A DNA stretch of 64,000 bases, from positions 12,649 to 76,648 of the forward strand of contig JANOPQ010000262.1 in the NCBI GenBank assembly GCA_031421935.1, given 5' to 3'. Origin of the DNA: Bacteroidota bacterium (GTDB lineage Bacteria; Bacteroidota; Bacteroidia; AKYH767-A; OLB10). Of this stretch, positions 13,415-40,240 are shown piece by piece. The stretch's first letter is position 1. Every line of letters starts with the position of its first letter. Position numbers and translations under genes: made by a program. The notes below the pieces were generated by a model. That model saw only the letters and a list, made by a program, of their open reading frames with translations, ran no database searches and was not told the DNA's origin.

Positions 13415-13425
13415 TCAAGAAAAAA

Positions 13426-17234: not shown

Positions 17235-17236
17235 GT

Positions 17237-18238: not shown

Positions 18239-18313
18239 AGAATTTATTTAATATTAAATTACCTAATTGTTTATTTTAAAAGAAAAATTATTTTAAATTG
18301 TTAGTCGTTAATT

Positions 18314-18745: not shown

Positions 18746-19151
18746 GTTGTGGAGCGAAATTAACGTTTTTACACGCCCCTCAGTAATATATTCGAGGTGT
18801 TTATCCTGCCCAAATTGTTAAAAAAATGAATCGATGGTATCACTTAATCACTGTAACACTCTTAGAATTTGGTAGTCAAATTATCTTTTGTATTAGTTTC
18901 GACTGTAAGAATAAGTGTAAATCTCCTTCGATTTTGCTGTAACTATTCGTAATTCAATACGTATATCATGCGCGAGACAGTTTTTGAGTTTGTTCAATGT
19001 GTTTAAAATCAATATTTTACAATCTATCTTTTTTCTGATGATTTTTTTATTAGATGTGAGGAATCGCCAAGTATTGTAACCTTATCGAGTGAAATTGAGT
19101 TTAATTACGCATGTGCTGTTGCTCTGTGTTGACGCCTCTAACCGACTTACC

Positions 19152-19895
19152 ATGAAATTAACTTCAAATTTTTTACTCAAAATTGCCACCATGGGTGTGA
19201 CAGGATTAATCATCCTTTTGCTCTTCAGCTCCTGCAATAAGTACGCCTTGTACCAAACCAATGCGACCAAAACGTCGAAAGGTTCTACCAGTGAGATTTC
19301 AGAGAAAGTTTTATCAACAGGTGATAAGATTTCACTTAGTGTTTGGGGTCATGATGAATTGAGCGTCGGTTCTGTTCATAGCGTTTATAGCATTCCCGAA
19401 GAAGCAGGAAAGTGGTTACAGATTGATGAAAATGGAGATGCGAATTTACCTCAAATTGGAAAAGTAAAATTGGAAGGATTGACCTTGTTAAAAGCAGAAG
19501 AAAAGTTGGTGAATTTATATAGTCAATTTATTCAAAAGCCAATTTTGAATTTGCGTTTGCTAAGTAATCAAGTTACAGTGCTCGGAGAAGTACAAAGTCC
19601 AGGAAATTATGTTTTCCATACGGATCAAGTTCGTTTGGTGGATATGATTGGTAAAGCAAATGGATTTACAGATTATGCAAAAACAACCGACATTAAAATT
19701 ATTCGTGGGATTGAAACGATAAGAGTGGATCTGACAAAAGCAGCAAGCAACGAAGTGATGGTAACATCACGCGATGTAATATATGTAGGTCCAGGAAGAA
19801 ATAAATCATTTGATCGCATCGCTTCAAAGTTGATTCCATTAGCGAGTTTACTCACTGCCTTAGCGCTAGTATATAACGTATCCGTAAGTAAATAA
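19152..19895 (+). CDS. wza: Polysaccharide export outer-membrane lipoprotein (Wza-like)
   Basis: Starting at the ATG at 19152 gives MKLTSNFLLKIATMGVTGLIILLLFSSCNKY (lipobox). Poly_export/SLBB-like patterns follow (GDKISLSVWGHDEL, VTVLGEVQSPGNY). The ORF-track start at 19089 adds 21 unlikely residues. Confidence 0.85.
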   Translation: MKLTSNFLLKIATMGVTGLIILLLFSSCNKYALYQTNATKTSKGSTSEISEKVLSTGDKISLSVWGHDELSVGSVHSVYSIPEEAGKWLQIDENGDANLPQIGKVKLEGLTLLKAEEKLVNLYSQFIQKPILNLRLLSNQVTVLGEVQSPGNYVFHTDQVRLVDMIGKANGFTDYAKTTDIKIIRGIETIRVDLTKAASNEVMVTSRDVIYVGPGRNKSFDRIASKLIPLASLLTALALVYNVSVSK

Positions 19896-19896
19896 T

Positions 19897-22197
19897 ATGC
19901 GAACACCTGGTTCTCTTCAATCAATGTTGTACCCACTTCAAAAAAGATGGTATCTCATTGTTATTTGCATTCTACTGTCGGGAATTGCGGCTACCCGTTA
20001 CCTTTATATGGCTACCTCGCAGTATCAAGCTTCGGCTACACTTCGTATTGAAGATGCTCAAGATGGAATGTCGGGTAGTAATTTGTACCGTGACTTCGAC
20101 GTTTTTAAATCTAACCCGAAAGTGCAAACGGAAGTGGAGGTTTTAAAATCTCGTTCGTTATTCGAGAAAGCATTGGATCGTTTAGATTTCCATGTAGAAT
20201 ATTATCGTCAAGGTGAATTGAAACAAGAGGAAGTTTATCATACTGCCCCATTCTTAGTTGACTATTCAATTACGGATAGTAGTTTTAATACGTTGAATTG
20301 CAATTTGAAATTTTTAGATGGGAATAAATTTTTAATTAGTTATGAGCGTTTAGGAAATACTTTTGAAAAGCAAGGAGTATTCGGAACTCAAATTTGTGAT
20401 GGAGGTGTTTGCATCACAGTAAAAAAAGATGAAGAACAATTGCGTTATCATCCACAATTAAAACAAGAGAATTGGTCGTTTATTGTTTATTCAAGAGATG
20501 CATTAACATCAAAGTTGATGAATGCTCAATACCTTGTTAAAGCAGCCGATAAAGAGGTAAATATTGTTAAACTTTATTATACACATGCGATTCCCGAGAA
20601 AGCATCAAAAATGGTGAATGCCATTTCTACTGCATACATTGATCAAGGAATTGAAGATAAGAAAAGTTTAGCAAGTAGTACCGTGGATTTCATCAATCAG
20701 CAAATTGCTATTGTCGGTAAAGAGTTGGATGATGCGCGTGATGCAATCAAAATGTATCGTATCCAAAATCAGATTGTCAATATCGCACAAGAAACGGATG
20801 CAACGTACAAAACGTTAGGTGAACTTACCTTGCAAAAGGTAGATGTGAACATGCAGTTGAATGTGTTGGAGAACATGAGTGATTATTTACGAAAAAATCG
20901 TGAAGTAAAGTTCTCTGGTCCAGAGTATGGAACGGTCATCGATCAGCTTTTTACGGAAAGTGTAGCTAAGCATAATGCGAAGATCCGTGAGCGAGAGGAA
21001 TTGATTAAGAAATACACTGCCGAAAACGATCGAGTTAAAAATATTGATGCAGAAATATCTCAACAAAAAGCATATTTAATAGAAAGTGTAAATAATACAC
21101 GTCGCAAATTGTTGTCGAAGGAAGATGATCTTTATGCAGCCATCGACGATCAGCGCGCTTCTTTTATTGGGATGCCAGAAAAGGAAAGTACGCTGCAAGA
21201 ACTAAACAGAAATTATTTTTTGTTTGAAAAAGTTTACAATTTCTTAATAGAAAAGCGTACGGAAGCAATCATTACACAACAAGTGAATGTATCATTTAAT
21301 CGAATTTTAGAAACTGCGTTGATTCCAGAAGTAGCCGTTATGCCTCGAAAAGACGTTGTATGGGGATTGGCCTTAATGCTCGGTTTGATTTTGGGTGTGA
21401 TGCTCGCTTATTTCCGTCATTATACGTTGCCATCGGTAAATACTCCAGAGGATTTGATGGCTGATTCATCTATCCCAGTGATCGGACAAATTCAGAAATT
21501 TAAAGTGAATGAAAGTTCTTATAAAGCATTTAATACTTTAACGGCTCGCATCTTTATGAATCAATCGACTCAGAGTTCGATGGTGATAACGGTGACGAGT
21601 ACCCGCAAAGGGGAAGGGAAATCTTTTGTGGCTACACAATTGGCACGAACATTAGCTGCTCAGGATAAGAAAGTAATTTTGTTAGACCTGAATAGTTATA
21701 ATCCCAAAGTAGCATCTAGTTTTGACGTTCGTAACGGATGTGGAATGAAAGATATTTACGCACAACAATGTTCATTGCAAGATGCCATTCAAATTACGTC
21801 TATCCCCAATCTCGATGTTATTACATCAGGTGAAACAGAAGATATGGTTGAACATTTGATTGCAACGAATCGCACGAAGGATATTATTTCTGAGTTGCGA
21901 ACTCAATATGATGCAGTCATTATTGATACCCCTGAAGTAGGTGAATACATTGAAGCCATCCCATTTATGAAGTGGAGCGATTTAAATTTATACGTGGTGC
22001 GTGCAGAAAGCGGTAAGAATGAATTAGTGGAAAACGCGGAAATGGTGAAGGAAGAGTATCGCCTACAAGAAGTGTATTATGTGTTGAATGCAATGAAGGA
22101 GAAAAGAAATCATACAGGATATAGCAAGCCCGCGAAAGTGAAGTCGATAAAGGGACGATCGTATAAAGCTCAACTTTCAAATTTATTCATGTGGTAA
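19897..22197 (+). CDS. wzc: Chain-length determinant / BY-kinase-type polysaccharide co-polymerase (Wzc-like)
   Basis: 766 aa with two TM segments flanking a coiled-coil periplasmic domain. The C-terminal P-loop domain has Walker A TRKGEGKS and Walker B AVIIDTPE. Walker A' is degenerate (ILLDLNSYNP) and the C-terminal tail has only 2 Tyr. Confidence 0.85.
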   Translation: MRTPGSLQSMLYPLQKRWYLIVICILLSGIAATRYLYMATSQYQASATLRIEDAQDGMSGSNLYRDFDVFKSNPKVQTEVEVLKSRSLFEKALDRLDFHVEYYRQGELKQEEVYHTAPFLVDYSITDSSFNTLNCNLKFLDGNKFLISYERLGNTFEKQGVFGTQICDGGVCITVKKDEEQLRYHPQLKQENWSFIVYSRDALTSKLMNAQYLVKAADKEVNIVKLYYTHAIPEKASKMVNAISTAYIDQGIEDKKSLASSTVDFINQQIAIVGKELDDARDAIKMYRIQNQIVNIAQETDATYKTLGELTLQKVDVNMQLNVLENMSDYLRKNREVKFSGPEYGTVIDQLFTESVAKHNAKIREREELIKKYTAENDRVKNIDAEISQQKAYLIESVNNTRRKLLSKEDDLYAAIDDQRASFIGMPEKESTLQELNRNYFLFEKVYNFLIEKRTEAIITQQVNVSFNRILETALIPEVAVMPRKDVVWGLALMLGLILGVMLAYFRHYTLPSVNTPEDLMADSSIPVIGQIQKFKVNESSYKAFNTLTARIFMNQSTQSSMVITVTSTRKGEGKSFVATQLARTLAAQDKKVILLDLNSYNPKVASSFDVRNGCGMKDIYAQQCSLQDAIQITSIPNLDVITSGETEDMVEHLIATNRTKDIISELRTQYDAVIIDTPEVGEYIEAIPFMKWSDLNLYVVRAESGKNELVENAEMVKEEYRLQEVYYVLNAMKEKRNHTGYSKPAKVKSIKGRSYKAQLSNLFMW

Positions 22198-22200
22198 ATT

Positions 22201-23478
22201 ATGAGCTTTCAACTTAGTTTAAGTCTGCCAAAACAGCTCATCAAAAGTGAGACAGCTGTTATTTATGCCGATCAGGCATTGGTAAGCGGACTTAATTTTT
22301 TGTCAAGTGTAATACTTGCACGTTATTTAGGACTCGAAGGTTTTGGTATCTATAGCATAGCATGGCTAGGAGTTATGATTGCAAGTAGTATCAATCAGCC
22401 TTTTATTATTGCACCCATGCAAACGTTGAGCAGTAAGAAAATAGATGCCGATCAATCTGATTATTTGCAAGCACTCGTTTTCAAGCAACTTATTTTTGCT
22501 GGATTGATGGGAGTACTGTCTTTCCTTGTTGTCATTGTAATGAGTTATCTTCTTGATCAATGGAAGGTACAAAGTATTATTCTTGCCTTTCCATTAGCAG
22601 TTTTTGCTTTTTTACTTCAAGATTTTTTTCGTCGTTATTTTTTTGTAATTGGTAAACCCTATAAATCTTTGTTAATTGATGCAATTGCCTATGGCGGAGT
22701 ACTCATTGCCTCGTTTGCTATACATTATGTTCGTTCGATGGATGCACAGTTCATTTTATTATTGACCGCTGTGTTTTTTTTGTATGCTTCGCTCGTGGGA
22801 CTATGGTCATTAGATCAGTTGCGCTTTAAACCAAAAGTAATCAAAGCGACAATACTCGAACATTGGGATTTTAGTAAATGGCTAACGGTTACGGCACTAC
22901 TACAATGGTTTAGTGGAAATCTTTTTATTATTGCAGCCGGAGCTATTCTTGGGCCAGTAGCCGTAGGAGTGACTCGGATGGCACAAAATATAGTTGGAAT
23001 AACCCATGTTCTATTTTTAGCCATGGAAAATATTATTCCAGTTCGAGCATCTCAACATCAACGAGAAGGAGGAAACGAAGAAATGTTTCGTTACTTGTGG
23101 AAGTTTGCTTTGCAAATGGGAGCAGTTACATTAACATTGTTGACGGTTCTAGCGATCTTTAGTAAACAAATCATTTTATTATTTTATGGAGCTGAATTTG
23201 TAATTTATCAGCATATCTTAATCGGATTTTGCGCATTGTATGTGATTATATTTATTGGATATCCTCTTCGTTATGCTATCCGTACGTTAGAAAATACACG
23301 ACTTATTTTTATTTCTTTTATCGCAACTAGTATTTTTAGTGTCTTAACTGCTTATCCAATCATTAAAGCATTCGGATTAAATGGTGTATTAATTGGTTTG
23401 GGCATCACCCAACTAATTACACTCTTCCTTTATTATTTTAGTTTGCGAAAGGAAGTTGCGAAGTTATCAGCTGAATAG
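22201..23478 (+). CDS. wzx: Wzx-type polysaccharide flippase (MOP superfamily)
   Basis: 425-aa polytopic membrane protein (about 12 TM). Its position after wzc fits, and the N-terminal pattern LVSGLNFLSSVILARYLG is typical of Wzx-family proteins. Confidence 0.8.
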   Translation: MSFQLSLSLPKQLIKSETAVIYADQALVSGLNFLSSVILARYLGLEGFGIYSIAWLGVMIASSINQPFIIAPMQTLSSKKIDADQSDYLQALVFKQLIFAGLMGVLSFLVVIVMSYLLDQWKVQSIILAFPLAVFAFLLQDFFRRYFFVIGKPYKSLLIDAIAYGGVLIASFAIHYVRSMDAQFILLLTAVFFLYASLVGLWSLDQLRFKPKVIKATILEHWDFSKWLTVTALLQWFSGNLFIIAAGAILGPVAVGVTRMAQNIVGITHVLFLAMENIIPVRASQHQREGGNEEMFRYLWKFALQMGAVTLTLLTVLAIFSKQIILLFYGAEFVIYQHILIGFCALYVIIFIGYPLRYAIRTLENTRLIFISFIATSIFSVLTAYPIIKAFGLNGVLIGLGITQLITLFLYYFSLRKEVAKLSAE

Positions 23479-23561
23479 TCCATTTATATTCTCATTATAG
23501 GTTTGCTTTGTACTTTTCATCCGAAACCTTACATGCATCTTACACGTAAAAAGAATCAACT

Positions 23562-24698
23562 ATGAAAGTGATTCATGTAGTACTTGGTAAGGCCAATCCC
23601 AATAGAATGAATGGGGTGAACAAGGTTGCACATCAGCTAGCCATGAATTTATATGCGCATCAAGTGCCCGTGGAAATATGGGGAATTACGAAAACTCCAA
23701 CAGAAGCTGTTTATCCTCGTCCATTTCCTACTCATTTGTTTAGATCTCAACCTATCTACCGCGACTTAGATCCTAAAATGATGTTTGCAGTTTCTCAGGA
23801 AAAGAAGGACACTATATTTCATATTCATGGTGGATTCATCACTGACTTTTATAAGTTAACTCGATTATTGAAGGAGATGAATTTCGAATATGTGTATACT
23901 CCGCATGGTGCATTCAATAAAATTGCTTTGGAGAAGAACAAGTGGATTAAAAAAATTTACATAAGCAGATACGAGAAATCTATTTTACGTCATGCCAAAG
24001 CCATTCAATTGTTAGGACAAAGTGAGTTCGACCATCTGGGAACTATTATTCGATTGAGTAATAAAGTTGTTATACCCAATGGACAAGATTTTGATGAGCT
24101 AGCTTTTGAATTTGCAACAATGAAAAATCGAAATGCTCCGGTATTTGGTTTTTGTGGTCGATTAGATACCTATTACAAAGGCCTCGACTTTTTATTGGAA
24201 GGATTTGCCGGTTATTGTAAGAAGGGTGGCGAAGGTGAATTATGGTTGATAGGTGATGGACCTGATCGTCCTCAACTCGAAGCATTGTGTAAAGTATTTC
24301 ATATTGAAACGCGTGTGCAGTTTATGGGAGCACGTTATGGAAAGGATAAACTAAATCGAATTGCAAATATGGATGTTTTTTGTCACCCTTCTCGTTCAGA
24401 AGGTTCACCCACAGCGGTTCTTGAAGCGGGCGCATTAGGAAAAGCACTTATCGTAAGCACTGCAACCAATGTTGGGGCAGATGTTGAAAAGTATAATGCA
24501 GGTTTTCACATTCGCCAAAGTACAAGTAAGAGTATCGAAAATGCAATGTTTAGTTTTTTAAAGACTTACCAATCTGGTGAATATTTAGAGTTTGGAAAGC
24601 AAGCAAAAGAGATGGTGAAAATTGAATTTTCATGGAATGCGGTTACGAAGAAATTGCTAGAGCTGTACGATTATGAAACACGAGCCGTAAAGTTATGA
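23562..24698 (+). CDS. Glycosyltransferase family 4
   Basis: 378 aa. The C-terminal GT4 signature reads FCHPSRSEGSPTAVLEAGALGKALIVS (an E-x7-E-like motif). Confidence 0.85.
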   Translation: MKVIHVVLGKANPNRMNGVNKVAHQLAMNLYAHQVPVEIWGITKTPTEAVYPRPFPTHLFRSQPIYRDLDPKMMFAVSQEKKDTIFHIHGGFITDFYKLTRLLKEMNFEYVYTPHGAFNKIALEKNKWIKKIYISRYEKSILRHAKAIQLLGQSEFDHLGTIIRLSNKVVIPNGQDFDELAFEFATMKNRNAPVFGFCGRLDTYYKGLDFLLEGFAGYCKKGGEGELWLIGDGPDRPQLEALCKVFHIETRVQFMGARYGKDKLNRIANMDVFCHPSRSEGSPTAVLEAGALGKALIVSTATNVGADVEKYNAGFHIRQSTSKSIENAMFSFLKTYQSGEYLEFGKQAKEMVKIEFSWNAVTKKLLELYDYETRAVKL

Positions 24699-25996
24699 AT
24701 GAAGAATATTTACTTTCTTCACAATTGGCAAAACGCATCCAACGCTTTTTGATTTTATTATTGGCACTAAGAATAGTTTCATACTTCGTACTCACTGATA
24801 ATATTGTAATTGTTCAAATAACAAAGGCCAGTTTGCGTATTTCTATTACTTTGTTATTAGCTGTGATTTTATTTTTTCAAACCCGGAGAAATAATCCAAG
24901 GAAAAATAAATTTTTGCAAGTCACTCCGTGGGTGTTGTATGGATTGTATTTGTTTTTAGGCGTAGCTTCACTTTTTTGGACGAGTTCATTTCATGCTAGC
25001 GCTTTGCAATGGGTGATGGATTTTGAAGGATTTATATTCGCTTGGATGTTTATGGGTGTTTTTTACATTTATAAACAACGTGATCCCGAAAATTATTTTG
25101 AATTGCATAAAATTATTGCCCCAGCTGTTTTAATGGTTTCGGTAGGATTTATTCTTGGGATATTTCTTGATCCCGATAAATTTTATCGATTAACACATGG
25201 CGGAAGTGTAAGTCGGTTAGGTGGATTTATTATCAATCCAAATGAGTTGGGAATGTTGTTTGTAATTGGAATCAGTTGCTTTCTTCCTATGCTTTTTCAA
25301 CAAGGAAAATTGCGAATTAGTGTCGCACTTTCAATGATCCTGCTCACCTATCAATTAATATTAACGGGTTCGCGCTCTTCGTTGATTGGGTTGTTATTGG
25401 TTTTAATCTTGTATGCTATTTTATATGGAAGTAAGATCAGCAAGTTGGCAATTATCGTTGGAACTATTGCATTAGTTCCAATTGCTGGCTATTCTTTCTT
25501 TGTAAAGCAAGGGCAAGTCGCAGAATTATTTACACTTACTGGCCGAATCCCCTTTTGGCAAGATCTTTTGACTTATAATTTCCCAAAGGAACCATGGCTA
25601 GGATTTGGATATATGCGTATCGATTACGTCGATAAATTCGATTCCTTAAATGCGTATGCTGGTGCGATGACACATAATACCTTTTTGCAAGTATTGTTAG
25701 GGCTTGGAATGAGTGGTCTGTTGCTAGTTCTGATGCAGTTGTCAGTTTTTCTGTATTTTGCTAGCAAAGTGGCTGATAAAGGGTTAAAACAATCGATTGG
25801 TCTCCTATTAATTCCACTTTTGGTTAATTCAATTACCGAGTTCGGCATTTTTGGAGAAACCAATTATGGAATCATCTTTTATTTATTTCTAGTTTTTACA
25901 GTGGCAGTAGAACCTCTTGTTCACTCTGAGCGTATAAAAAGTCGCCACCATGAAAAAGTCAAAACTTTCTCTCACCGATCTCAGCCTCTTGCGTGA
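24695..25996 (+). CDS. wzy: O-antigen polymerase/ligase family membrane protein (Wzy-like)
   Basis: 433-aa polytopic membrane protein containing a Wzy_C-like loop (LTGSRSSLIGLL). An ATGA overlap links it to the upstream GT. Confidence 0.75.
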   Translation: MNEEYLLSSQLAKRIQRFLILLLALRIVSYFVLTDNIVIVQITKASLRISITLLLAVILFFQTRRNNPRKNKFLQVTPWVLYGLYLFLGVASLFWTSSFHASALQWVMDFEGFIFAWMFMGVFYIYKQRDPENYFELHKIIAPAVLMVSVGFILGIFLDPDKFYRLTHGGSVSRLGGFIINPNELGMLFVIGISCFLPMLFQQGKLRISVALSMILLTYQLILTGSRSSLIGLLLVLILYAILYGSKISKLAIIVGTIALVPIAGYSFFVKQGQVAELFTLTGRIPFWQDLLTYNFPKEPWLGFGYMRIDYVDKFDSLNAYAGAMTHNTFLQVLLGLGMSGLLLVLMQLSVFLYFASKVADKGLKQSIGLLLIPLLVNSITEFGIFGETNYGIIFYLFLVFTVAVEPLVHSERIKSRHHEKVKTFSHRSQPLA

Positions 25997-27299
25997 TTTA
26001 TTCGCTCCAGGGTTGGAGATGATTATTATTGATCCCTTCGAAAGAGTGGATGAGAATGTAGAGGAAAGTATGGAGAGTTATCAACCCGATGAGAATAGTT
26101 TGAATTTTGTGATTGATGTATCACAGTATTCTTTTTCGTGTTTTCTATCTAATGCACAGGATGATTCTTGCACTTCTTTTGATTTTATTAATAACGCCGA
26201 TGGAACGATTCGATGGTTTTATAATTCGAATTGTAAGGAAGCAATGCATTTGTCTTTGTACAATTCGAATTCAATAAAGTCAAAGATTTATGTTTCGGTA
26301 AGTAAAATAGTATGGAAGTTGGGCCAAGGTAATTTGCTCTCTTCCGGTCGATTTGAAATGCAACAATTCTTAGTGAATGAAGTAAAAGCAAAGTATGGAA
26401 TTGAAGAGCATGAAATATGTACTTTTTTCACAGGCACAAGAGGTGCAACACGAAAAATAGTTGTAGATGTGACAAGTGAAGATGGAATTTGTGCATTTAT
26501 AAAAATACCATTAACAGTAACTGCTGAAAAACTAGTTAAAAACGAAATTGATATGGTGAAGTCCTTGAATAAATTTGATTTTACAACCTTGAGTCTGCCT
26601 AAGATCTCAAAGCATATAAATGGTCACGCTCGACTATCAAACGTTAAGCCTGCATTTACAATTTCTGCAGATAAAATCGCGGCCATTCACGCCAGCGCTG
26701 TTGGCGAGTTGTACGCACTTAGTCATGAGCGTAAAGCAATCACCGATACAGAATCATGGAATGTGATCAATGGAAATGTGCATTATTTGTTTAATGAATT
26801 AGAGTATAGGAATAATTTAGACCCCAGTAAAATTGATGCGTTAGTAAAAGGATTGAAGCAACTTTATTCAACAATTTCATTGGGAGAGTCTATTCCCGTT
26901 TCTGTGTCTCATGGTGACTTTACTCCATGGAACATGTATTGCGACGATCAACGATTATATGTTTACGATTGGGAAATGGCGAGAAATGGTATTCCGATGT
27001 TATTTGATTTGTTTCATTTTAGTTACCAGTCTGTTATTTTGCAACAACAAAAATCGTATAAGGAAGTAAAGATTAACATTAACGGTTGGTTAAAGCAGCC
27101 AATCGTGATGCACATGATTCAGAAGTATAGAATAAATGTTAAATTGCATCATGCTCTATACTTGTTGTTCAATGTAAGTTTTTATTTACGTCAATACTTG
27201 AATGAAAAGGAGCCGCTCATGCAAAGTGAATGGATGATGGATGCTTGGGTGTTGGCTATTGAAGATTGTTTAACAACTGTAAAAGTCAATTCAAAATAA
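25950..27299 (+). CDS. Phosphotransferase of the APH/choline-kinase fold (unknown substrate)
   Basis: The catalytic loop SHGDFTPWNM (HGDxxxxN) and the metal-binding YVYDWEMA (DxE) are the APH/ChoK-family signatures. The N-terminal 150 aa or so are unassigned. The start is uncertain: 25950 overlaps wzy by 47 nt, and an alternative ATG lies at 26019. Confidence 0.7.
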   Translation: MKKSKLSLTDLSLLRDLFAPGLEMIIIDPFERVDENVEESMESYQPDENSLNFVIDVSQYSFSCFLSNAQDDSCTSFDFINNADGTIRWFYNSNCKEAMHLSLYNSNSIKSKIYVSVSKIVWKLGQGNLLSSGRFEMQQFLVNEVKAKYGIEEHEICTFFTGTRGATRKIVVDVTSEDGICAFIKIPLTVTAEKLVKNEIDMVKSLNKFDFTTLSLPKISKHINGHARLSNVKPAFTISADKIAAIHASAVGELYALSHERKAITDTESWNVINGNVHYLFNELEYRNNLDPSKIDALVKGLKQLYSTISLGESIPVSVSHGDFTPWNMYCDDQRLYVYDWEMARNGIPMLFDLFHFSYQSVILQQQKSYKEVKININGWLKQPIVMHMIQKYRINVKLHHALYLLFNVSFYLRQYLNEKEPLMQSEWMMDAWVLAIEDCLTTVKVNSK

Positions 27300-27301
27300 T
27301 C

Positions 27302-28606: not shown

Positions 28607-28631
28607 TTGAAATCACAATATATTATAGATC

Positions 28632-29387: not shown

Positions 29388-29388
29388 C

Positions 29389-30117: not shown

Positions 30118-30121
30118 TAAA

Positions 30122-32503: not shown

Positions 32504-32747
32504 AGTTTTTGTCTAATATTTATTTTCCTTTAAATGTAACCTTTTTCAACATATTGATAAACGTATATTTATAATTCAACGTTTTTTGGCTCTAATTTGA
32601 GTACATCCGAGTCTGAGGCATTTGGCAGCGTAGATCAACTCAATTTTGAAAGAACCTTCCTCTGTAAGCAATCGTACAAGAAAGGAAATTCATTCTATAG
32701 AATTGAACTAATTTATTATCGAATTTATAAGCAGAGCTCAAATAAAT

Positions 32748-33944
32748 ATGAAGTCGAAGTTAAGTGTTGCTGTGATTGGTACAACTGGTTTGCCGGCTCG
32801 TTATGGCGGATTTGAAACTTTAGCGCACCATTTGGTGGATCAGTTAGGGACAGAGGTTGATTTTACAGTGTATTGCAGTGGAAAATATTTTGAGAAGTCT
32901 TCCAAGCGGCTAACAGTTTTTAATGGCGCCAAGTTAGTCTATCTTCCTCTAAATGCGAATGGATATCAAAGTGTAATTTACGATATGATTTCCCTTGTAC
33001 ATGCTATTCGACATGCTGATGTTGTGCTAGCACTAGGAGTATCAGGTGCCATGCTCTTTCCAATATTGAAATTGTTCACAAGGAAAAAGATTTTAGTAAA
33101 CATTGATGGACAAGAATGGAAACGCCCAAAATGGAATTGGATAGCCAAAAAGGTGTTAAGTTTCAGTGAGAAATTGGCAGTTCGTTTTGCAGATGTAGTC
33201 ATCACGGATAATAAAGTTATTCAGCAATATGTACATAAGAGTTACAATCGTACTGATGCTTGGCTAATTGAATATGGTGGAGATCATGTAAGCAAGCAGC
33301 CGTTAACGAATTATCATTATGAACAATTTCCTTTTTTAAAGGAGCCGTATGCTTTCAATGTAAGTCGAATTGAACCTGAGAATAATATTCATTTGATTTT
33401 AGATGCTTTCAGTAGAGCTCCACAACAAACATTAGTAATGGTGGGTCTGTGGAATCATGGAAAGTATGGAATGGATTTGAAAGTGAAGTTTTCTAATTAT
33501 GCAAACATTCATTTGTTGGATCCGATCTATGACCAAGATCAACTGAATTCGATTCGATCGAATGCTAAGTTTTATGTGCACGGACACAGTGCCGGAGGAA
33601 CAAATCCAAGTTTAGTGGAAGCAATGTGTTTGGGATTACCCATCCTCAGCTATGGCATCGATTATAATCGTGATACAACAAATCATCGCGCACGTTATTT
33701 TAACAATGCAGAAGATCTTTTGAAACAATTATCCTATTTCGCACAAACAGATCTCTCGAAGATGGGAGTGGAGATGCAAAATTATGCAATGCAAAAATAT
33801 GCATGGCAACGCATTGCTTCCATGTATTTTGCTGCTTTTAAAGGAGAATCACAAGCAGTGGCAGAGTTGTCATTCACGATTTCAAATCAATCAGTACATG
33901 CAATTGATTTGAAAACTAATAATACTAGATCAGCTGCCGCATGA
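32748..33944 (+). CDS. DUF1972-type glycosyltransferase (GT4-like, rhamnosyl/hexosyl-transferase class)
   Basis: The N-terminal VAVIGTTGLPARYGGFETLAHHL is the DUF1972 signature. The C-terminal YVHGHSAGGTNPSLVEAMCLGLPIL fits GT1/GT4. Confidence 0.8.
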   Translation: MKSKLSVAVIGTTGLPARYGGFETLAHHLVDQLGTEVDFTVYCSGKYFEKSSKRLTVFNGAKLVYLPLNANGYQSVIYDMISLVHAIRHADVVLALGVSGAMLFPILKLFTRKKILVNIDGQEWKRPKWNWIAKKVLSFSEKLAVRFADVVITDNKVIQQYVHKSYNRTDAWLIEYGGDHVSKQPLTNYHYEQFPFLKEPYAFNVSRIEPENNIHLILDAFSRAPQQTLVMVGLWNHGKYGMDLKVKFSNYANIHLLDPIYDQDQLNSIRSNAKFYVHGHSAGGTNPSLVEAMCLGLPILSYGIDYNRDTTNHRARYFNNAEDLLKQLSYFAQTDLSKMGVEMQNYAMQKYAWQRIASMYFAAFKGESQAVAELSFTISNQSVHAIDLKTNNTRSAAA

Positions 33945-36880
33945 AGAAACTTCGCTTGCTTGTTTTAGGGTGCGGGTTGTGTACTTGCTTGCAAGCACAG
34001 CAAGTTACTACTGTGGCTGGAAGCGCTGGAGCATCAGGATTTGTTGATGGAGCTGGACCCATTGCTCGATTTAATGAACCTCATGCCGTAGCAAGTGATC
34101 CCAATGGAAATGTTTTTATCGCCGATCGACTCAATCATAGAATTCGAAAAGTGAATGCATCCGGAATCGTAAGTACCTATGCTGGAACTGGGGCTATTGG
34201 TGGTACCGATGGCCCTGCACTTTCTTCTACATTTAATGAGCCATGGGGAATTGCATGCGATGCTATCGGAAATGTATATGTTGTAGATGCTAAGAATTAT
34301 AAAATTCGAAAAATTGATAGTGGAGGTATGGTTACTACTTTAGCTGGTTCTGGAGTATTTGGAACAACAAATGGAGCAGCATCTTTGGCGCGCTTTGGCT
34401 TTCCTGCAGGTATCGCAGTAACATCAAATGGTTATACTATTTATGTTTCCGACTATAACACCCATACTATACGAAAAATTGAAAATGGTCAAGTTTCTAC
34501 CATGGCTGGAACAGTTTTCGTTTCTGGAATGAATGATGGTACTGGAGCTACTGCCACGTTCAATCATCCTTATGGTTTATGCATGACTTCATCAGGTGAT
34601 GTACTCATCGCCGATGAGTGGAACAGTGTGATTCGAAAAATGAATTCACTCGGTGTAGTAACTACAGTTGCCGGCAGTGGAATTCTAGGGAGTATAGACG
34701 GCCCGGCTATGAGTTCTCAGTTTAAATTTCCTGCAGGTATTTGTACCGATGGCATGGGCAATATTTTTGTTGCAGATGTATTGAATCATACCATTCGAAA
34801 ACTGAATGCTTCAGGAATGGTAAGTACATACGCTGGTTTAGCAGGAAATATTGGCGATGTCAATGGTAATGCAACGTTAGCCCGATTTAATAATCCAACT
34901 GGAGTTTGTTTTAATGTAATAGATCAAGGTGTATATATTGGTGATAATACAAATCAGTTATTGCGAAAAATTACGAATGTATCTTCAATTGCTTTATCTC
35001 TTTCTTTGGCAGGAGCATCAACTAGATGTTTTGGAGATCCAATCGTTTTTCAAATTAGTCCATCTAACTTAAGTAATTATACGATTAAAGAAAATTCAAT
35101 AATAGTTGGGAGTTCTTCGAATGCTACAGTAACAGTCTCCAATTTATCGGTAGGTACACATACACTGTATGCATCTGCTGTAGATGGAACGGGTGCAACC
35201 GCCAATTCTGCAAATATTACAGTTACGATTCTTCCACCCATCGTTCCTACCATTACAAGTAGTAATGGAACTGCATTATGTAACGGTGCCGCCTTAACCC
35301 TAACCGCTCAGTCAGGATCAAATTATGTATGGTCAAATGGAGCTACTTCTAATTCTATTGTTGTCAATGCTGCAGGATCTTATCAAGTGAGCGTAACGAA
35401 TGCAGCGGGTTGTAGAGGAATCTCTTTACCTTTTGTTGTTACTGTTCAAAGTAATCCAGTCGCAACCATTACCGCTGCATCCGACACCATTTGTCCAAAT
35501 CAAAGTACTTCGTTAACTGCTTCAGTTGCTAGTTCATATCAATGGTCAACAGGCGCTACAACGCAAAGTATTTCCGCAGGACCTGGTTCTTATTCAGTGA
35601 CTGTTACGAATGCCGGAGGTTGTACAGCAACGTCTTTAGTTCAAACTATTTCTGCCTTTTCAGTAAGCACGCCTGTCGTTTCTCCCGATGGAACGGTTAT
35701 ACTTTTTCAAGGTGATTCGGTATTGTTGCAAGCAACTGGAAGTTCCACATATATGTGGTCCAATGGCATTACGAGCAGTAGTATTTATGTTAACGCAACG
35801 GGAAATTATTCTGTTGTTGGAACTTCGACTAATGGATGTACTGCAACATCTACTCCAGCAAATGTGACTGTAATTTCATCATCAACCATTCTTACTGCAC
35901 AAGGTGCTACCAGTTTTTGTGATGGAAATTTTGTTCAACTACAATCGATCTTTCCAACAGGAAATCAATGGTACTATAATGGCCTTCCTTTAGCTGGTTC
36001 CAATGCACAGCAATATAATGCATACGATGATGGCTGGTATCATGTAGGGGTCTGGCAAAATAATGCTTGGATGTTTTCTGATTCTATTCGTGTAACCGTT
36101 TTCCCCACACCCGATGTTCCAAATTTAAATGATACTTCTGTTTGCAAGGGATCTTCAATTACATTGAACATCCCGTTTGTAAGTGGTGTAACTTATAAAT
36201 GGTACAATGCATTAACAGGAGGCTCTTTACTTTCTAGTGGATTGAGTTTTACTTCACCTCCACTAACTACCATGACAACTTATTATGTTGAAGCAGTGAA
36301 TTCATTTAGCTGTAATTCGGCGCGCTTGGATGTTGATGTTGTTGTTAAAGCTTTACCAGTGGCTAGCTTTACTTATTCTTCTGTTGCATCAAGTGGACAA
36401 TACAATGTTAGTTTCACATGTACTACATTGAATCCAGATTATATCACTTGGATTTTTGGCGACACCTCAATACAAGGAAACGTATCTCATCTTACAGATC
36501 CAATGTATACTTATCCAGTTGCTGGAACGTATGATGTAATACTCGTCATTGAAAATTTCTTAGGCTGTACGGATACGTTAGTGAAGAAGATCGCTGCAGG
36601 AGCTAATAATCCTGCTTTTGTTCCAACCACCTTTACACCCAATGGCGATGGGAAGAATGATATTTTCAGAGTACGTGGCGAGCAATTTACACTGGAGGCG
36701 ATGAAAATTTATGATCAGTGGGGTACATTATTATATTCTACAGATGCGTCTAATCCGCAGTGGGATGGAACCGTGAATGGAAAAACAGTGATGAATGGTA
36801 CTTATGTTTATCGCATCGTTATTCTGGATGAAAATTTTAATATACAAGAAATGACAGGTCCTGTGACTGTAATAAAATGA
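33941..36880 (+). CDS. Secreted NHL-repeat beta-propeller / Ig-like-repeat / PKD protein with a T9SS type-B C-terminal sorting domain
   Basis: Signal peptide, then six roughly 55-aa NHL blades each ending xxIRK (NHRIRKV, NYKIRKI, THTIRKI, NSVIRKM, NHTIRKL, NQLLRKI). Repeated Ig-like modules follow (WSNGATSNSIVVNAAGSYQVSVTNAAGC, and similar). The C-terminus FTPNGDGKNDIFRVRG...WGTLLYST...WDGTVNGKTVMNGTYVYRI...GPVTVIK is the gliding-motility-associated / type-B CTD. Confidence 0.88.
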   Translation: MKKLRLLVLGCGLCTCLQAQQVTTVAGSAGASGFVDGAGPIARFNEPHAVASDPNGNVFIADRLNHRIRKVNASGIVSTYAGTGAIGGTDGPALSSTFNEPWGIACDAIGNVYVVDAKNYKIRKIDSGGMVTTLAGSGVFGTTNGAASLARFGFPAGIAVTSNGYTIYVSDYNTHTIRKIENGQVSTMAGTVFVSGMNDGTGATATFNHPYGLCMTSSGDVLIADEWNSVIRKMNSLGVVTTVAGSGILGSIDGPAMSSQFKFPAGICTDGMGNIFVADVLNHTIRKLNASGMVSTYAGLAGNIGDVNGNATLARFNNPTGVCFNVIDQGVYIGDNTNQLLRKITNVSSIALSLSLAGASTRCFGDPIVFQISPSNLSNYTIKENSIIVGSSSNATVTVSNLSVGTHTLYASAVDGTGATANSANITVTILPPIVPTITSSNGTALCNGAALTLTAQSGSNYVWSNGATSNSIVVNAAGSYQVSVTNAAGCRGISLPFVVTVQSNPVATITAASDTICPNQSTSLTASVASSYQWSTGATTQSISAGPGSYSVTVTNAGGCTATSLVQTISAFSVSTPVVSPDGTVILFQGDSVLLQATGSSTYMWSNGITSSSIYVNATGNYSVVGTSTNGCTATSTPANVTVISSSTILTAQGATSFCDGNFVQLQSIFPTGNQWYYNGLPLAGSNAQQYNAYDDGWYHVGVWQNNAWMFSDSIRVTVFPTPDVPNLNDTSVCKGSSITLNIPFVSGVTYKWYNALTGGSLLSSGLSFTSPPLTTMTTYYVEAVNSFSCNSARLDVDVVVKALPVASFTYSSVASSGQYNVSFTCTTLNPDYITWIFGDTSIQGNVSHLTDPMYTYPVAGTYDVILVIENFLGCTDTLVKKIAAGANNPAFVPTTFTPNGDGKNDIFRVRGEQFTLEAMKIYDQWGTLLYSTDASNPQWDGTVNGKTVMNGTYVYRIVILDENFNIQEMTGPVTVIK

Positions 36881-39081
36881 AGAATATTTTTACATATCTT
36901 CTTTTATTTTCTTGTTGTATAACAGGATGGAAGGCGAGTGCGCAAGATCCACATTATACGCAGGCGCACCGTATTCCATCATGGTATAATCCAGCTGCTG
37001 CCGGACATGGCGTCGAGCATATTCGATTAACGATGTTATATCGCAATCAATGGTCTAGTGTGATGAGTCCATTTAAAACACAAGGCCTATTTTTTGATAA
37101 ACAAGTGAGTAAAGTAGGATTAGGAGCGAACCTTGTCAATAATTCATCTGGAGATGCTGGGATACGTCAGTTGTTTTTGAACGGTCAAATATCATATCGA
37201 TATGCCATTGGAAAAAGTGTTATTGCTTCTGGACTTCAAGTGGGATTAATCCAGAAAAGTTTTGATCCATCAAAAATGACTTTTGATGATCAGTATACTC
37301 CTGATCAAGGAGCGAATCCTGCTACGCCTACATCAGAAACTTTTTCATATACGAAGTTGACACGACCTGATTTTGGCGCTGGACTGCTGTGGACATATGG
37401 TCATCCAGGAAAGGAAAAATTTTATCCATATGCAGGTGTTTCTTTGCAACATATTAATCAACCAAAGGAAAGTTTCATAGAAGAAAATAATTTTATTCCA
37501 AGGAAATTAACAGCAAATGCCGGACTAGGAATTGTCTTAAGTGAAGCGATTACCATTACACCTATGCTCTTATTTGCTCAACAGCAATTTTCAAAAGAAT
37601 TACTGGGTGGAGTAATGGTAAAACTACCGTTAGAGGGTCGTGATAATGTGGAAGGCGGCTTGTTGTTTCGGAACAAAGACGCAGCTGCTTTGTATGCCGG
37701 TTATCAATGGAATAATTTTATGTTGGGAATGAGTTACGATGTTAACCTTTCTGGTGTGACGGGCGGTCCAGGCGCATTTGAACTCACGTTAACGTATATA
37801 CCCAAAGCCAAGGAAAAAAAGGAGCTTGCTAAGAAGAAGGAAAAAGAAAAGAAATCGGCTCCAAAAGCTAAAACGTCGACAACGAAACCGAAAACATCAG
37901 TGCCTACTTCTGGACCTAAGCCTTCCGTGGCAACGAATTCTCCTGCTCCTAAAACTCAGGAAAAAACAGTACCATCGAAAACTCCAAATTCTTCTGATAC
38001 GAAATCAGTAGTTACTACAAAGCCACCATCGGCGAAACCAGCAACGACAGCGGAAGCTATCGTTAAGCCTCCTGTTTCAACTGTACCATTTAATAATGCA
38101 CAGAAAGCGAATAACCCATCTGCAAAAGTTGTTACTCCAAATGAAAAGGTGGAAATGACAAAGGCAAATCTGAAGAATGCGAAGAATTTGCCAATATCAA
38201 GTATTGTACTTACACCTAAAAAGTCAGAGAGAAAAGCCAAACTTGTAAATATTTTACCTCTTGAAGGTCATGAATTGCCTGAAGTTGAAAATGCAACTTA
38301 CAAAGCTACGCCGAAGCGAATATATGTTTCAATACCTGTTGAGCAACCAAAAGCAGGAGATAAAAAATCTATTTCTTCATTGCCAATAGAAGAACGAGAG
38401 ATCGCTTTAATTACTCCATTGAAGTTAAAATCTACGCCAAAGACTCTTCCAGTAAAAGTTAGTCCATTACAAGTTCATAAAACAAAAGTAAAAGGTGGTT
38501 TAGGTATTCCATCTAACATGGAACCAAATACTACTTCAATTAATTCATCGCCTACAAAGGCTATTGCTTTGCCAGATGTAATAATTAAGAAAGCTGAAAT
38601 TAGTTCTGCACCAAAGGTTAAGTCAATTGGAATTCCAATCGAAAGTCCAGAATCTTTAACAACGATACCAACTACAATTACACGCGAACCTATTGTTACA
38701 ACTTTAATTTCGGATTCAGTTTTAAATTCATCATCCAATTTTGGAATAATTGAATTTAAACCTTTCAGTGCTAATGTACATGGAATTTACAAACTGGATG
38801 TTATTGAACCCGCTTTCGACTCGGTTTATTGGGATGCTGATTTATTTATAGTTATCACCGGACATACTCATAGCGAGGGCAATACTTCTGCTAACATGAA
38901 CTTGTCACAAGCACGCGCAGATGCCGTTCGCGCCATTTTCTTGAAAAAGGGACTGCCAATGGAAAAAATTCATACCATAGCTTATGGCGAAACAAAGCCA
39001 CTGAAAAATAATTTGACAGAAGAAGATAAACAGCATAACCGTAGAGTAGAAATTCACGTAATAAGAAAAAAGCATCCGTAG
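36877..39081 (+). CDS. PorP/SprF-family T9SS outer-membrane protein fused, via a roughly 300-aa K/P/T/S-rich linker, to an OmpA-like peptidoglycan-binding domain
   Basis: The N-terminus SAQDPHYTQAHRIPSWYNPAAAG plus a beta-barrel-like region to about residue 305 fits PorP/SprF. The linker runs 37804-38737 (KEKKELAKKKEKEKKSAPKAKTSTTKPKTSVPTSGPKPS...). The C-terminus ITGHTHSEGNTSANMNLSQARADAVRAIF...AYGETKP...NRRVEIHV fits OmpA_C. An ATGA overlap links it to the upstream cargo gene. Confidence 0.85.
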   Translation: MKNIFTYLLLFSCCITGWKASAQDPHYTQAHRIPSWYNPAAAGHGVEHIRLTMLYRNQWSSVMSPFKTQGLFFDKQVSKVGLGANLVNNSSGDAGIRQLFLNGQISYRYAIGKSVIASGLQVGLIQKSFDPSKMTFDDQYTPDQGANPATPTSETFSYTKLTRPDFGAGLLWTYGHPGKEKFYPYAGVSLQHINQPKESFIEENNFIPRKLTANAGLGIVLSEAITITPMLLFAQQQFSKELLGGVMVKLPLEGRDNVEGGLLFRNKDAAALYAGYQWNNFMLGMSYDVNLSGVTGGPGAFELTLTYIPKAKEKKELAKKKEKEKKSAPKAKTSTTKPKTSVPTSGPKPSVATNSPAPKTQEKTVPSKTPNSSDTKSVVTTKPPSAKPATTAEAIVKPPVSTVPFNNAQKANNPSAKVVTPNEKVEMTKANLKNAKNLPISSIVLTPKKSERKAKLVNILPLEGHELPEVENATYKATPKRIYVSIPVEQPKAGDKKSISSLPIEEREIALITPLKLKSTPKTLPVKVSPLQVHKTKVKGGLGIPSNMEPNTTSINSSPTKAIALPDVIIKKAEISSAPKVKSIGIPIESPESLTTIPTTITREPIVTTLISDSVLNSSSNFGIIEFKPFSANVHGIYKLDVIEPAFDSVYWDADLFIVITGHTHSEGNTSANMNLSQARADAVRAIFLKKGLPMEKIHTIAYGETKPLKNNLTEEDKQHNRRVEIHVIRKKHP

Positions 39082-39084
39082 TTC

Positions 39085-40176
39085 ATGATAACATCTGAAT
39101 CTTTAATGATCTTGTTTTGCATTGGAGTAGCCATGTGTACCACAGCTATTTTAATTCCTTGTTGGATTAAAGTTTGTGCCAAATGGAATTTGTATGAACA
39201 AACGGATGATCGCAAACGTCATCGCAGTAATATTCCAACCATGGGTGGAATTTCCATCTTCGCTGGAATATTTATTAGTTCATTAATTTTTGTTCAAGAT
39301 TCAAATGCATATAATTTTAATATTCTCTATGGTGCAATGTTCCTACTGTTCTTAACTGGATTTTTCGATGATTTAATAGATTTATCCCCTTTAAAAAAAG
39401 TGGCATTTCAATTTATAGTTTCCATCCTAGTAATTGCAGCTGGATTTAGAATTGAAAGCGCGTTCGGACTATTTTCGGTAGGTGAATTACCTATGATCAT
39501 TTCTTATGGTGTAACAATTTTTTTCATTATTGCCATTACCAATGCATTAAATCTAATTGATGGATTAGATGGTTTAGCTGGTAGTATTACATTGATAACA
39601 AGTTTGATTTTTGGAATTTTATTTTATCAAGTAGGTGATGTAGGTATGACATTTTTAGCGATGTCAATTTGTGGTGCGGTCTTTGGATTTCTATTTTATA
39701 ATTTCCATCCTGCAAAAATATTTATGGGAGATACTGGGTCCTTGGTATTGGGATTTCTTTTATCCATACAAGCCATTGCGCTCATGCAACATTATTCGCA
39801 TGATGTGAATAGCATTCCTGAATTATCACCCACTGTGATTATTGCTGCCTTGTTTGTACCTGCTTATGATGTCTTGCGTGTATCGGTAATAAGAATGCTT
39901 ACAGGCTATTCTCCTTTTCATCCCGATCGAAATCATGTACACCATATGATTCTTGGACAAGGTTTTGGGAAGCGCATGACTACCTTAATGATTACGGGAT
40001 TCAATTTGTTGTATGTTGCTATTGCGGTGTTATTCCCTCAAATGGATATCAATTTATTTTTAATTTTGGCAGTTTGCCTTGGAATGCTAACTATGAATAC
40101 ATTGAGTATGTCTTTCTTAGCCAATATTTATGGCCGATTAGGAGGAAGATTGTATCAGCAACCAGCAAAAGCTTAA
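39085..40176 (+). CDS. WecA/MraY-family polyprenyl-phosphate N-acetylhexosamine-1-phosphate transferase (initiating transferase)
   Basis: 363-aa polytopic protein with signatures GFFDDLIDLSP, NALNLIDGLDGLAGS and IFMGDTGSLVLGF. Confidence 0.88.
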   Translation: MITSESLMILFCIGVAMCTTAILIPCWIKVCAKWNLYEQTDDRKRHRSNIPTMGGISIFAGIFISSLIFVQDSNAYNFNILYGAMFLLFLTGFFDDLIDLSPLKKVAFQFIVSILVIAAGFRIESAFGLFSVGELPMIISYGVTIFFIIAITNALNLIDGLDGLAGSITLITSLIFGILFYQVGDVGMTFLAMSICGAVFGFLFYNFHPAKIFMGDTGSLVLGFLLSIQAIALMQHYSHDVNSIPELSPTVIIAALFVPAYDVLRVSVIRMLTGYSPFHPDRNHVHHMILGQGFGKRMTTLMITGFNLLYVAIAVLFPQMDINLFLILAVCLGMLTMNTLSMSFLANIYGRLGGRLYQQPAKA

Positions 40177-40240
40177 ATATTTCCTAAAACGATTACTTTT
40201 GCTTTTCGAATTTGGATACTATTCCAAATGGAAAAAATTG

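Follow-up and report, generated by a model that had tools for sequence, protein, structure and literature searches.

Type B cargo proteins of the T9SS (type IX secretion system) remain bound to dedicated carriers (PMC12635249). SprF is bound to SprB, a PorE-PorP-PG1035 complex exists, six of the ten porP-like genes of Flavobacterium johnsoniae adjoin porE-like genes, and it has been proposed that non-mobile type B cargo is anchored to the wall through PorP-PorE-like complexes (PMC9143113). The cysteines in the periplasmic tail of SprF link it to the moving gliding track (PMC12635249). Type A cargo is tethered to lipopolysaccharide (LPS), by an A-LPS/O-LPS linker in Porphyromonas gingivalis (PMC13086638) and in a WaaL-dependent manner in Cytophaga hutchinsonii (PMC12860637). 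On the polysaccharide side, Wzi is an outer-membrane lectin encoded in the group 1 capsule loci of Escherichia coli and Klebsiella (PMC3791409), and in the GacO/GacB system a WecA-family transferase primes the glycan and a GT4 glycosyltransferase (GT) containing DUF1972 adds the second sugar, committing the lipid carrier (PMC6802508). Almost no functions have been assigned to type B cargo beyond gliding, and the retention of Wzy-dependent polymers on Bacteroidota cells has not been explained. Here we describe a locus of a Bacteroidota bacterium, in a 64,000-nucleotide stretch of contig JANOPQ010000262.1 (the window), in which a type B cargo gene and the gene of its PorP/SprF-family carrier lie between a DUF1972 GT gene and a WecA-like gene of a Wza/Wzc/Wzx/Wzy polysaccharide locus. 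A preliminary description of this DNA knew of no such arrangement, and a full-text literature search for a type B cargo-carrier pair within such an operon found none.

The pair was inserted once and has been retained vertically. On balance we lean towards the reading that its product is co-made with the glycan-priming enzymes, tethered to the wall, and most likely acts on the same polymer, since the protein would be made in fixed proportion with two enzymes that prime it. A standard T9SS module, type B cargo plus dedicated PorP/SprF carrier gene, entered between the last two genes of the locus in the ancestor of the clade. The cargo would be exported by Sec, pass the T9SS by means of its C-terminal domain (CTD), which is of type B, and stay on its own PorP-family barrel; the barrel would in turn be tethered to peptidoglycan by a long flexible linker and an OmpA-like domain, a one-polypeptide version of PorP-PorE. 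The outcome would be an immobile NHL-propeller head kept off the membrane on an Ig-like stalk. This cargo might bind, retain or organise the polymer at the surface, in the manner of the Wzi lectin for the E. coli group 1 capsule, and glycan and protein may form one surface structure.

Cargo and carrier proteins

Domains were called with Pfam and NCBIfam hidden Markov models (HMMs) at curated cut-offs, which reproduced the functional labels of the preliminary description (wza, wzc, wzx, wzy, GTs, cargo, PorP/SprF and WecA-like) but also revealed an OmpA-like domain fused to the PorP protein, which it had missed. Both family models that it had named score above their cut-offs: TIGR04131 for the type B CTD of the cargo (residues 894-976; 61.2 bits, cut-off 35; PF13585, 60.8 bits) and TIGR03519 for the PorP barrel (residues 1-307; 186.1 bits, cut-off 90.55; model positions 1-290 of 292). 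The cargo carries the Pfam domains NHL, Ig_7, PKD and CHU_C, and neither TIGR04183 nor PF18962, the type A models, is among the Pfam matches and the 25 of 39 NCBIfam matches listed. Its N-terminal Sec signal peptide, read by eye from the translation (MKKLRLLVLGCGLCTCLQA, with QQV following the cleavage site), lies in the least conserved part of the protein, while the NHL head, a six-bladed propeller at residues about 20-345, and the CTD are the most conserved. A query with the cargo returned about 75 clusters of full-length orthologues, all of 973-1036 aa.

An AlphaFold model built from 40 orthologues (mean pLDDT 86) consists of a six-bladed propeller, a chain of beta-sandwiches and a C-terminal domain. 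The stalk is nearest to the T9SS-secreted GhpA grappling-hook filament, and the NHL head is nearest, by sequence and by fold, to non-catalytic scaffolds (a teneurin-like protein, SOQ1, NHLRC2, TRIM71 and Thin). Because the closest solved relatives are non-catalytic NHL domains, the predicted role of the head is binding rather than catalysis. It is very improbable that the propeller is an extracellular enzyme that trims or modifies the polymer, as a counterpart of AlgL, PslG or BcsZ. An enzyme devoted to degrading or modifying the polymer is indeed encoded in many exopolysaccharide (EPS) operons, lyases and lactonases are known among beta-propellers, and there are weak Pfam cross-matches (Arylesterase 24.9 bits, Vgb_lyase 20.9 bits, below cut-off 50). 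However, the best matches are the scaffolds just named, the invariant residues follow the structural blade signature of NHL repeats (D..N..IRK) rather than a metal or catalytic site, and a long Ig stalk with wall tethering fits an adhesin or lectin better. A lyase or hydrolase assignment was set aside as unsupported by sequence or fold matches.

The carrier gene adjoins the stop codon of the cargo with a 4-nt overlap, as expected of a cognate PorP/SprF-like gene. Behind the barrel, the protein continues into a disordered, low-complexity linker of about 330 aa rich in K/P/S/T and ends in an OmpA-like domain (PF00691, 56.7 bits, residues 657-722) that matches peptidoglycan-binding domains; its orthologues range from 555 to 822 aa owing to the variable length of the linker. 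The window carrier has no cysteine after the signal peptide, and distant orthologues carry 2-10 in the tail. Of the domains that make up PorE (TPR, beta-propeller, CRD and OmpA_C-like) only the OmpA-like one is present, and the 25 of 39 NCBIfam matches listed do not include NF052230. The carrier would work like PorP plus PorE, though it is no member of the PorE family. The OmpA fusion speaks for a wall tether provided by the carrier and not for anchoring by the glycan, and by analogy the PorP-linker-OmpA arrangement fits the static, wall-anchored class of type B carriers. Such a natural fusion lends independent support to the PorP-PorE wall-anchoring model proposed for non-mobile type B cargo.

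Some further observations concern these two proteins and their relatives. The predicted mature N-termini are both Gln, in the cargo (CLQA/QQV, 33941-34010) and in the carrier (KASA/QDP, 36877-36950). This fits the Q-rule of the Bacteroidetes, which yields an N-terminal pyroglutamate. The idea, prompted by these Gln residues, that the neighbouring M28 peptidase might be a glutaminyl cyclase was dropped as unsupported, its matches being generic Zn-peptidase and amidohydrolase ones far below cut-offs. The carrier genes of loci L004 (10001-12197, in the lysine-rich linker) and L007 (10001-12424, in the PorP barrel) are frameshifted; homopolymer errors are more likely than pseudogenes, because the contig names (tig…) suggest long-read assemblies. 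In the cargo-free locus L061, wecA is followed by a 169-aa open reading frame (ORF) and, at a distance of about 1 kb, by the gene of an 847-aa protein with PD40 and OmpA domains (11099-13639), which resembles the PorE/CHU_0125 families at about 236-238 bits, below the cut-offs of 600 and 620.

Insertion and retention of the pair

The pair lies within the glycan locus where the preliminary description had placed it, and the gene boundaries, overlaps and gaps listed there were recovered from the ORF list and the sequence: ATGA overlaps at 24695-24698, 33941-33944 and 36877-36880, and junctions of 0-4 nt at 19895/19897, 22197/22201, 27299/27302, 29387/29389, 30117/30122, 31390/31391 and 39081/39085. 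The count of 18 consecutive genes does not hold. The plus-strand genes from 19152 to 40176 number 15, or 16 if that of the M28 peptidase is counted, and the junctions listed earlier also yield 15. The run is broken twice, by an 83-nt gap (23478/23562) and by a conserved non-coding gap of 244 nt, and probably is not the single operon that had been assumed. The locus behaves as two modules: module A reaches from wza to the GT gene GT1c, and module B consists of the DUF1972 GT, cargo, PorP and wecA genes. The 244-nt gap separates them, and they are found apart in L015, L039/L040 and L106.

A query with the PorP-OmpA protein, in one genome per GTDB species, returned 25 loci. In 19 of these, with PorP identities of 45-95%, the order TMK-like (thymidylate-kinase-like), methyltransferase (MT), acetyltransferase (AcT), GT1b, GT1c, gap, DUF1972 GT, cargo, PorP, wecA, M28 is kept; all 19 are metagenome-assembled genomes (MAGs) labelled Bacteroidota, Bacteroidia or Bacteroidetes, two of them with evidently mislabelled Bifidobacterium titles. 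The other six loci hold generic PorP or OmpA relatives (≤34% identity) and share no synteny. In the reciprocal direction, an alignment of ten TMK-like proteins was run against a metagenome collection and gave 80 loci (38-77% identity). The window proteins were mapped onto these, and local HMMs covering three parts of the pair (PorP barrel, type B CTD, NHL head) were applied to them. The widespread gene order is wza, wzc, wzx, GT1a, wzy, APH-like, TMK-like, (MT), (AcT), GT1b, GT1c, DUF1972 GT, wecA. Recurrence of the pair-bearing order over many divergent loci makes the arrangement more than chance. A neighbour-joining tree of TMK-like sequences groups all 22 of its pair-bearing loci in one clade, and every other deep branch is cargo-free; most parsimoniously, the pair entered between the DUF1972 GT and wecA genes in a single, old and stable insertion.

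Within the clade the pair is held tightly. The junction between the DUF1972 GT and cargo genes is a 4-nt overlap in about 20 loci and that between the cargo and PorP genes in about 22, down to about 45-50% amino-acid identity; the distance from PorP to wecA is 2-18 nt. All three of the divergent cargo orthologues looked up (45-47% identity) sit in the same locus, and the pair is missing from no locus in which module B is visible. Since the tight junctions are conserved over divergent loci, they argue for co-transcription and translational coupling of module B. The coupling claimed in the preliminary description is supported at these junctions, but coupling to the initiating transferase is not obligatory, as wecA is absent after PorP in four lineages. 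Locus L015 lacks module A, yet keeps the DUF1972 GT, cargo and PorP genes intact, and a DDE transposase (DUF4372 + DDE_Tnp_1, 4403-5605) lies just upstream of its DUF1972 GT gene, at the position of module A, which suggests separation of the modules mediated by an insertion sequence. In L106 module A is kept and that site holds no module B.

The TMK-like homologues with names are all MAGs, from Chitinophagales, Flavobacteriales, Vicingaceae, Bacteroidales and one from Opitutaceae, and the two homologue searches (TMK-like and cargo) yielded MAG names only, with no cultured carrier of the locus. Most cargo-free loci are likely to be from Bacteroidota, because most have 29-42% G+C and one carries a SusC-like receptor.

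Several observations weigh against a link between the pair and the polymer. In 20 distant loci outside the clade, in which the local HMMs detected no PorP, type B CTD or NHL, the DUF1972 GT and wecA genes are adjacent; the ancestral locus works without the pair, which is unneeded for glycan synthesis. A glycan locus without the pair is what the preliminary description had named, as the mark of a simple insertion, among the findings that would count against its reading, and taken literally this finding was made. An insertion it is, although a single, ancient and stably kept one rather than a recent strain-level event. The flanking M28, CN-hydrolase and aminotransferase genes are syntenic across the clade as well, so that part of the conservation is general vertical synteny and the PorP search alone cannot separate operon constraint from it. 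Within the clade, wecA is absent after PorP in L012, L015, L109 and the P0283 contig, and in L108 the pair sits behind a much reduced set of glycan genes (wzc, the APH-like and TMK-like genes at half size, GT1b); the pair therefore tolerates the loss of neighbouring glycan genes, at least locally. Loci L039/L040, also inside the clade, keep module A without module B at that site. A promoter may lie in the 244-nt gap, which makes co-expression with module A uncertain. Moreover, all carrier organisms are uncultured MAGs, and carbohydrate binding by the NHL head is a prediction.

Some of these points also favour regulatory hitch-hiking, in which the pair occupies a permissive, well-expressed site, is co-regulated with envelope features and serves an unrelated ligand (prey, substrate or other cells) with no relation to the polymer. 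We hold this to be unlikely, while giving it real weight: the pair is an insertion into a locus that functions without it, its flanks are syntenic too, it persists in four loci (L012, L015, L108 and L109) that locally lack wecA or most of the glycan genes, and T9SS cargo is abundant in the genome, with a protein of >3101 aa bearing SprB repeats encoded 10 kb upstream. Against it stand the overlaps kept at both junctions to about 45-50% identity, the presence of the pair wherever module B is visible, and the independent capture of unrelated T9SS cargo at the next junction elsewhere, which is unexpected for a site merely permissive to any gene.

These independent captures, which the preliminary description had overlooked, are found in L107, L097 and L081. 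At the junction between GT1c and the DUF1972 GT gene, L107 carries a gene for an FG-GAP/UnbV_ASPIC protein of about 2170 aa (14654-21153), split by a frameshift, with a type A sorting domain (TIGR04183, 31.1 bits, cut-off 23). A 37%-identical orthologue of its N-terminal part lies at the same place in L097 (5114-7441). On a different branch of the tree, L081 encodes a PKD/FG-GAP/UnbV_ASPIC protein of >2266 aa directly after GT1c (4697-11494). In L076, the second gene beyond GT1c encodes a reprolysin that bears a type A domain. The other extra genes at this site are mostly for glycan enzymes (an acyltransferase, a GT, a second Wzy_C protein), and L076 also has a 327-aa ORF without family. Because most additions are glycan enzymes and several of the non-glycan ones are T9SS beta-propeller cargo, the pattern argues for more than a permissive site. 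Independent T9SS cargo at a neighbouring junction is the best added argument for a functional link. Tentatively, the polymer may be held or patterned by a wall-tethered, stalked propeller lectin, or be covalently attached to the cargo, at a locus that repeatedly recruits T9SS beta-propeller proteins; in this specific form the proposal is itself rather unlikely. If true, it would describe a T9SS-based functional analogue of Wzi and the first physiological role tying type B cargo to polysaccharide. A coupled pair kept across a deep clade, with repeated capture of T9SS propellers, makes the locus a concrete candidate for a protein-polysaccharide surface assembly.

Three side observations concern this cargo. 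The giant FG-GAP/UnbV_ASPIC proteins of L107, L097 and L081 are CRTAC1-like. The product of orf919 in L056 was considered as type A cargo on the similarity of its C-terminus by eye; no model matched, and it was not counted. On the minus strand of the window, an ORF of >3101 aa (3-9305) runs off the window start and encodes numerous SprB repeats besides a signal peptide and a CUB domain; it is a giant SprB-like adhesin and probably another T9SS cargo, with its C-terminus outside the window.

Genes and expression signals of the glycan locus

Together, the genes of Table 1 supply in one locus all the parts of a capsule or EPS pathway: an outer-membrane polysaccharide export (OPX) protein, a PCP-2a co-polymerase/kinase, Wzx, Wzy, an initiating transferase and GTs (Pfam).

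Table 1. Positions in the window of the glycan genes, the inserted pair, the conserved gap and the flanking peptidase gene
Feature	Position	Strand	Remarks
Wza-type outer-membrane polysaccharide export protein	19152..19895	+	247 aa from ATG; PF02563 (Poly_export) and SLBB
Wzc-type polysaccharide co-polymerase fused to tyrosine autokinase domain	19897..22197	+	Wzz, GNVR, AAA_31
Wzx-type flippase	22201..23478	+	PF01943 (Polysacc_synt) 30.4 bits, barely over cut-off 28.2
GT4 glycosyltransferase GT1a	23562..24698	+	Pfam
Wzy_C-domain membrane protein, presumed Wzy polymerase	24695..25996	+	PF04932 52.6 bits
APH-like phosphotransferase	25950..27299	+	449 aa; PF01636; conserved across locus family
Two-domain protein with thymidylate-kinase-like (TMK-like) P-loop C-terminal half	27302..28606	+	PF02223; GVDGAGKST
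Methyltransferase (MT)	28632..29387	+	Methyltransf_24 (Pfam)
Hexapeptide-repeat O-acetyltransferase (AcT)	29389..30117	+	Pfam/NCBIfam
GT4 glycosyltransferase GT1b	30122..31390	+	Pfam
GT4 glycosyltransferase GT1c	31391..32503	+	Pfam; final gene of module A
Conserved non-coding gap between modules A and B	32504..32747	+	alignment with conserved blocks
DUF1972 GT4 glycosyltransferase (GacB/WchF-Cps2T-like)	32748..33944	+	PF09314 93.7 bits
T9SS type B cargo	33941..36880	+	979 aa; signal peptide, NHL propeller, Ig-like stalk, PKD, type B CTD
PorP/SprF-family barrel with K/P/S/T-rich linker and OmpA-like peptidoglycan-binding domain	36877..39081	+	734 aa; TIGR03519, PF00691
WecA/MraY-family polyprenyl-phosphate hexosamine-1-phosphate transferase (initiating enzyme)	39085..40176	+	PF00953 135 bits
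M28 Zn-peptidase, flanking gene	40199..41611	+	PF04389

The ORF of wza opens at a GTG at 19089, and the C-terminus of the protein is a hydrophobic helix; OPX proteins that are short and close with such a helix form a class common in Bacteroidetes (PMC9601211). We give next to no credence to the possibility that the PorP barrel serves the short Wza as a conduit for the polysaccharide, in the style of translocons composed of an OPX protein and a beta-barrel. At 247 aa Wza is short, and OPX proteins of this kind often depend on a partner beta-barrel (PMC9601211, PMC9603273). However, its terminal helix places it in the short-OPX class of Bacteroidetes that works without a coupled barrel (PMC9601211), the ancestral locus has no barrel gene, and PorP barrels have 14 strands against 16-18 in the known partners. 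On the first two of these points PorP was rejected as a polymer pore.

Wzc scores 106.7 bits on TIGR01007, slightly below the cut-off of 108.05, and the Wzy_C protein has no NCBIfam match. Its assignment as Wzy is not exclusive, because PF04932 is common to Wzy polymerases, WaaL ligases and PglL-type O-oligosaccharyltransferases. This bears on the possibility that the cargo is a substrate, the lipid-linked glycan being transferred to it by O-glycosylation through a PglL/WaaL-like Wzy_C protein or serving as its anchor, which we judge improbable. In its favour, the cargo gene lies between the genes for the first two lipid-linked glycan steps (PMC6802508), the Pfam family includes such enzymes, 34-39 of 40 orthologues retain three D(S/T)(A/I/L/V/M/T) sequons found in the stalk, and type A cargo is LPS-tethered in P. 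gingivalis (PMC13086638) and C. hutchinsonii (PMC12860637). Here, by contrast, the CTD is of type B, with no TIGR04183 among the matches listed, and PorP-like carriers hold type B cargo independently of PorU and PorV (PMC9143113). The sole Wzy_C gene is ancestral and grouped with wza, wzc and wzx, as a polymerase gene would be; the Ig-like repeats could contain the sequons as structural motifs, and the general O-glycosylation of Bacteroidota would act on such sequons regardless of the locus.

The WecA-like enzyme belongs to PF00953 and falls short of the WecA equivalog (TIGR02380, 160.6 bits, cut-off 326.05); likewise, the DUF1972 GT misses the equivalog cut-off of the Cps2T/WchF-GacB beta-1,4-rhamnosyltransferases (NF046071, 197 bits against 500), and the window contains no rmlBCD genes for the supply of dTDP-rhamnose. 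By analogy with GacO/GacB and WchF, the WecA-like enzyme would make the lipid-linked primer, to which the DUF1972 GT probably attaches the second, committing sugar.

The TMK-like gene is a hallmark of the locus family (556 homologues at E<=1e-20). It shares this status with the APH-like gene, and the N-terminal halves of both proteins (449 aa for the APH-like, 434-446 aa for the TMK-like) are without a family match. Fused forms of the two occur in some metagenome proteins (P0153, P0184), and in L108 each gene has half the size; their role may be to put a phosphorylated substituent on the glycan. Divergent from wza, on the minus strand, are a gene for an RmlA-long-like sugar-1-phosphate nucleotidyltransferase (17237-18238; 179 bits, cut-off 320) and one for a dUTPase, both kept upstream of wza in L031-L033 and L042; the nucleotidyltransferase could supply an activated sugar to the locus.

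The 83-nt gap before GT1a contains a -7-like box, TAGGTTTG, at 23498. A gap at the junction between GT1c and the DUF1972 GT gene, of about 50-460 nt, is present in nearly all loci, and its blocks are conserved in relatives to about 71% protein identity, most strongly over the ~90 nt that precede the start of the DUF1972 GT gene. It is likely to be an internal promoter or leader. For the gap, RNAalifold with eight relatives yielded -4.7 kcal/mol without a single compensatory pair, and the idea of an RNA structure was dropped. Over the whole window, neither Rfam at gathering thresholds nor a search for tRNAs produced a match, so that no known RNA element accounts for the gap. A scan for sigma-70 and terminator consensus, which is uninformative for Bacteroidota, produced counts that did not exceed those of shuffled sequence and placed no terminator in the gap. 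The Bacteroidota -7 box TANNTTTG occurs neither in the gap nor upstream of wza nor before the DUF1972 GT gene. Elsewhere on the plus strand, at 44061, 49608, 56278 and 58875, TANNTTTG boxes lie 4-30 nt upstream of the start codons of several genes and are consistent with Bacteroidota-type promoters with very short leaders.

At the far end, a -7 box (TACTTTTG, 40194-40201) stands directly before the M28 gene, which suggests that the transcript ends with wecA; the M28 gene probably has a transcript of its own. Throughout the clade (L001-L019, L108, L109) it comes after the pair without exception, directly after PorP where wecA is absent, and was not detected beside the cargo-free loci.

Comparison with described systems

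All the components belong to known families. What is new is the placement of the pair between the priming genes of a Wza/Wzc/Wzx/Wzy operon, the depth of its retention, the PorP-linker-OmpA fusion and the recurrent T9SS cargo. As in SprB-SprF of F. johnsoniae and PG1035-PorP-PorE of P. gingivalis, the CTD is of the TIGR04131 type and the carrier gene follows immediately downstream (PMC9143113, PMC12635249); an OmpA_C-like module is linked to the carrier, and the cargo is predicted to be carrier-bound at the surface. In those systems the OmpA-like domain sits on a separate PorE-like lipoprotein, whereas here it is fused to the PorP barrel by the disordered linker, and the TPR, beta-propeller and CRD domains of PorE have no counterpart in the window carrier. 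Unlike SprF, which is tied to the gliding track by its tail cysteines, the window carrier has a tail without cysteine. Neither of the two described pairs lies within a polysaccharide operon with a 4-nt overlap to a GT gene.

The priming genes resemble those of GacO/GacB and WchF (Cps2T) for streptococcal rhamnose glycans in pairing a WecA-family initiator with a DUF1972-containing GT4. The similarity is at the level of families (NF046071 197/500, TIGR02380 160.6/326), and in the window the two genes are split by the cargo-PorP pair.

The LPS tethering of type A cargo is alike in that T9SS cargo meets a Wzx/Wzy-made glycan at the cell surface. It requires a type A CTD and the PorU sortase, whereas the window cargo has a type B CTD and its own carrier. 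Furthermore, the genes for A-LPS are not interleaved with cargo genes, and the window locus, with Wza and Wzc, is of the capsule/EPS type, not the O-antigen type. A precedent for a T9SS surface protein that works with a secreted polysaccharide is RemA of F. johnsoniae, a mobile T9SS-secreted lectin that reportedly interacts with a Wza/Wzc-dependent polysaccharide (Shrivastava et al. 2012). By contrast, remA is said to lie outside the glycan operon and to encode a mobile gliding adhesin, and the window protein is predicted to be immobile and wall-tethered.

For the favoured reading, the nearest analogue in function is Wzi. The two proteins share no homology: Wzi is an 18-stranded barrel and itself the lectin, whereas here a propeller on a stalk would be delivered by the T9SS to a separate barrel, with polymer binding predicted. 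In both cases, however, the gene of a surface protein lies within a Wza/Wzc/Wzx/Wzy-dependent locus, and the proposed role is retention of the polymer on the cell (PMC3791409).

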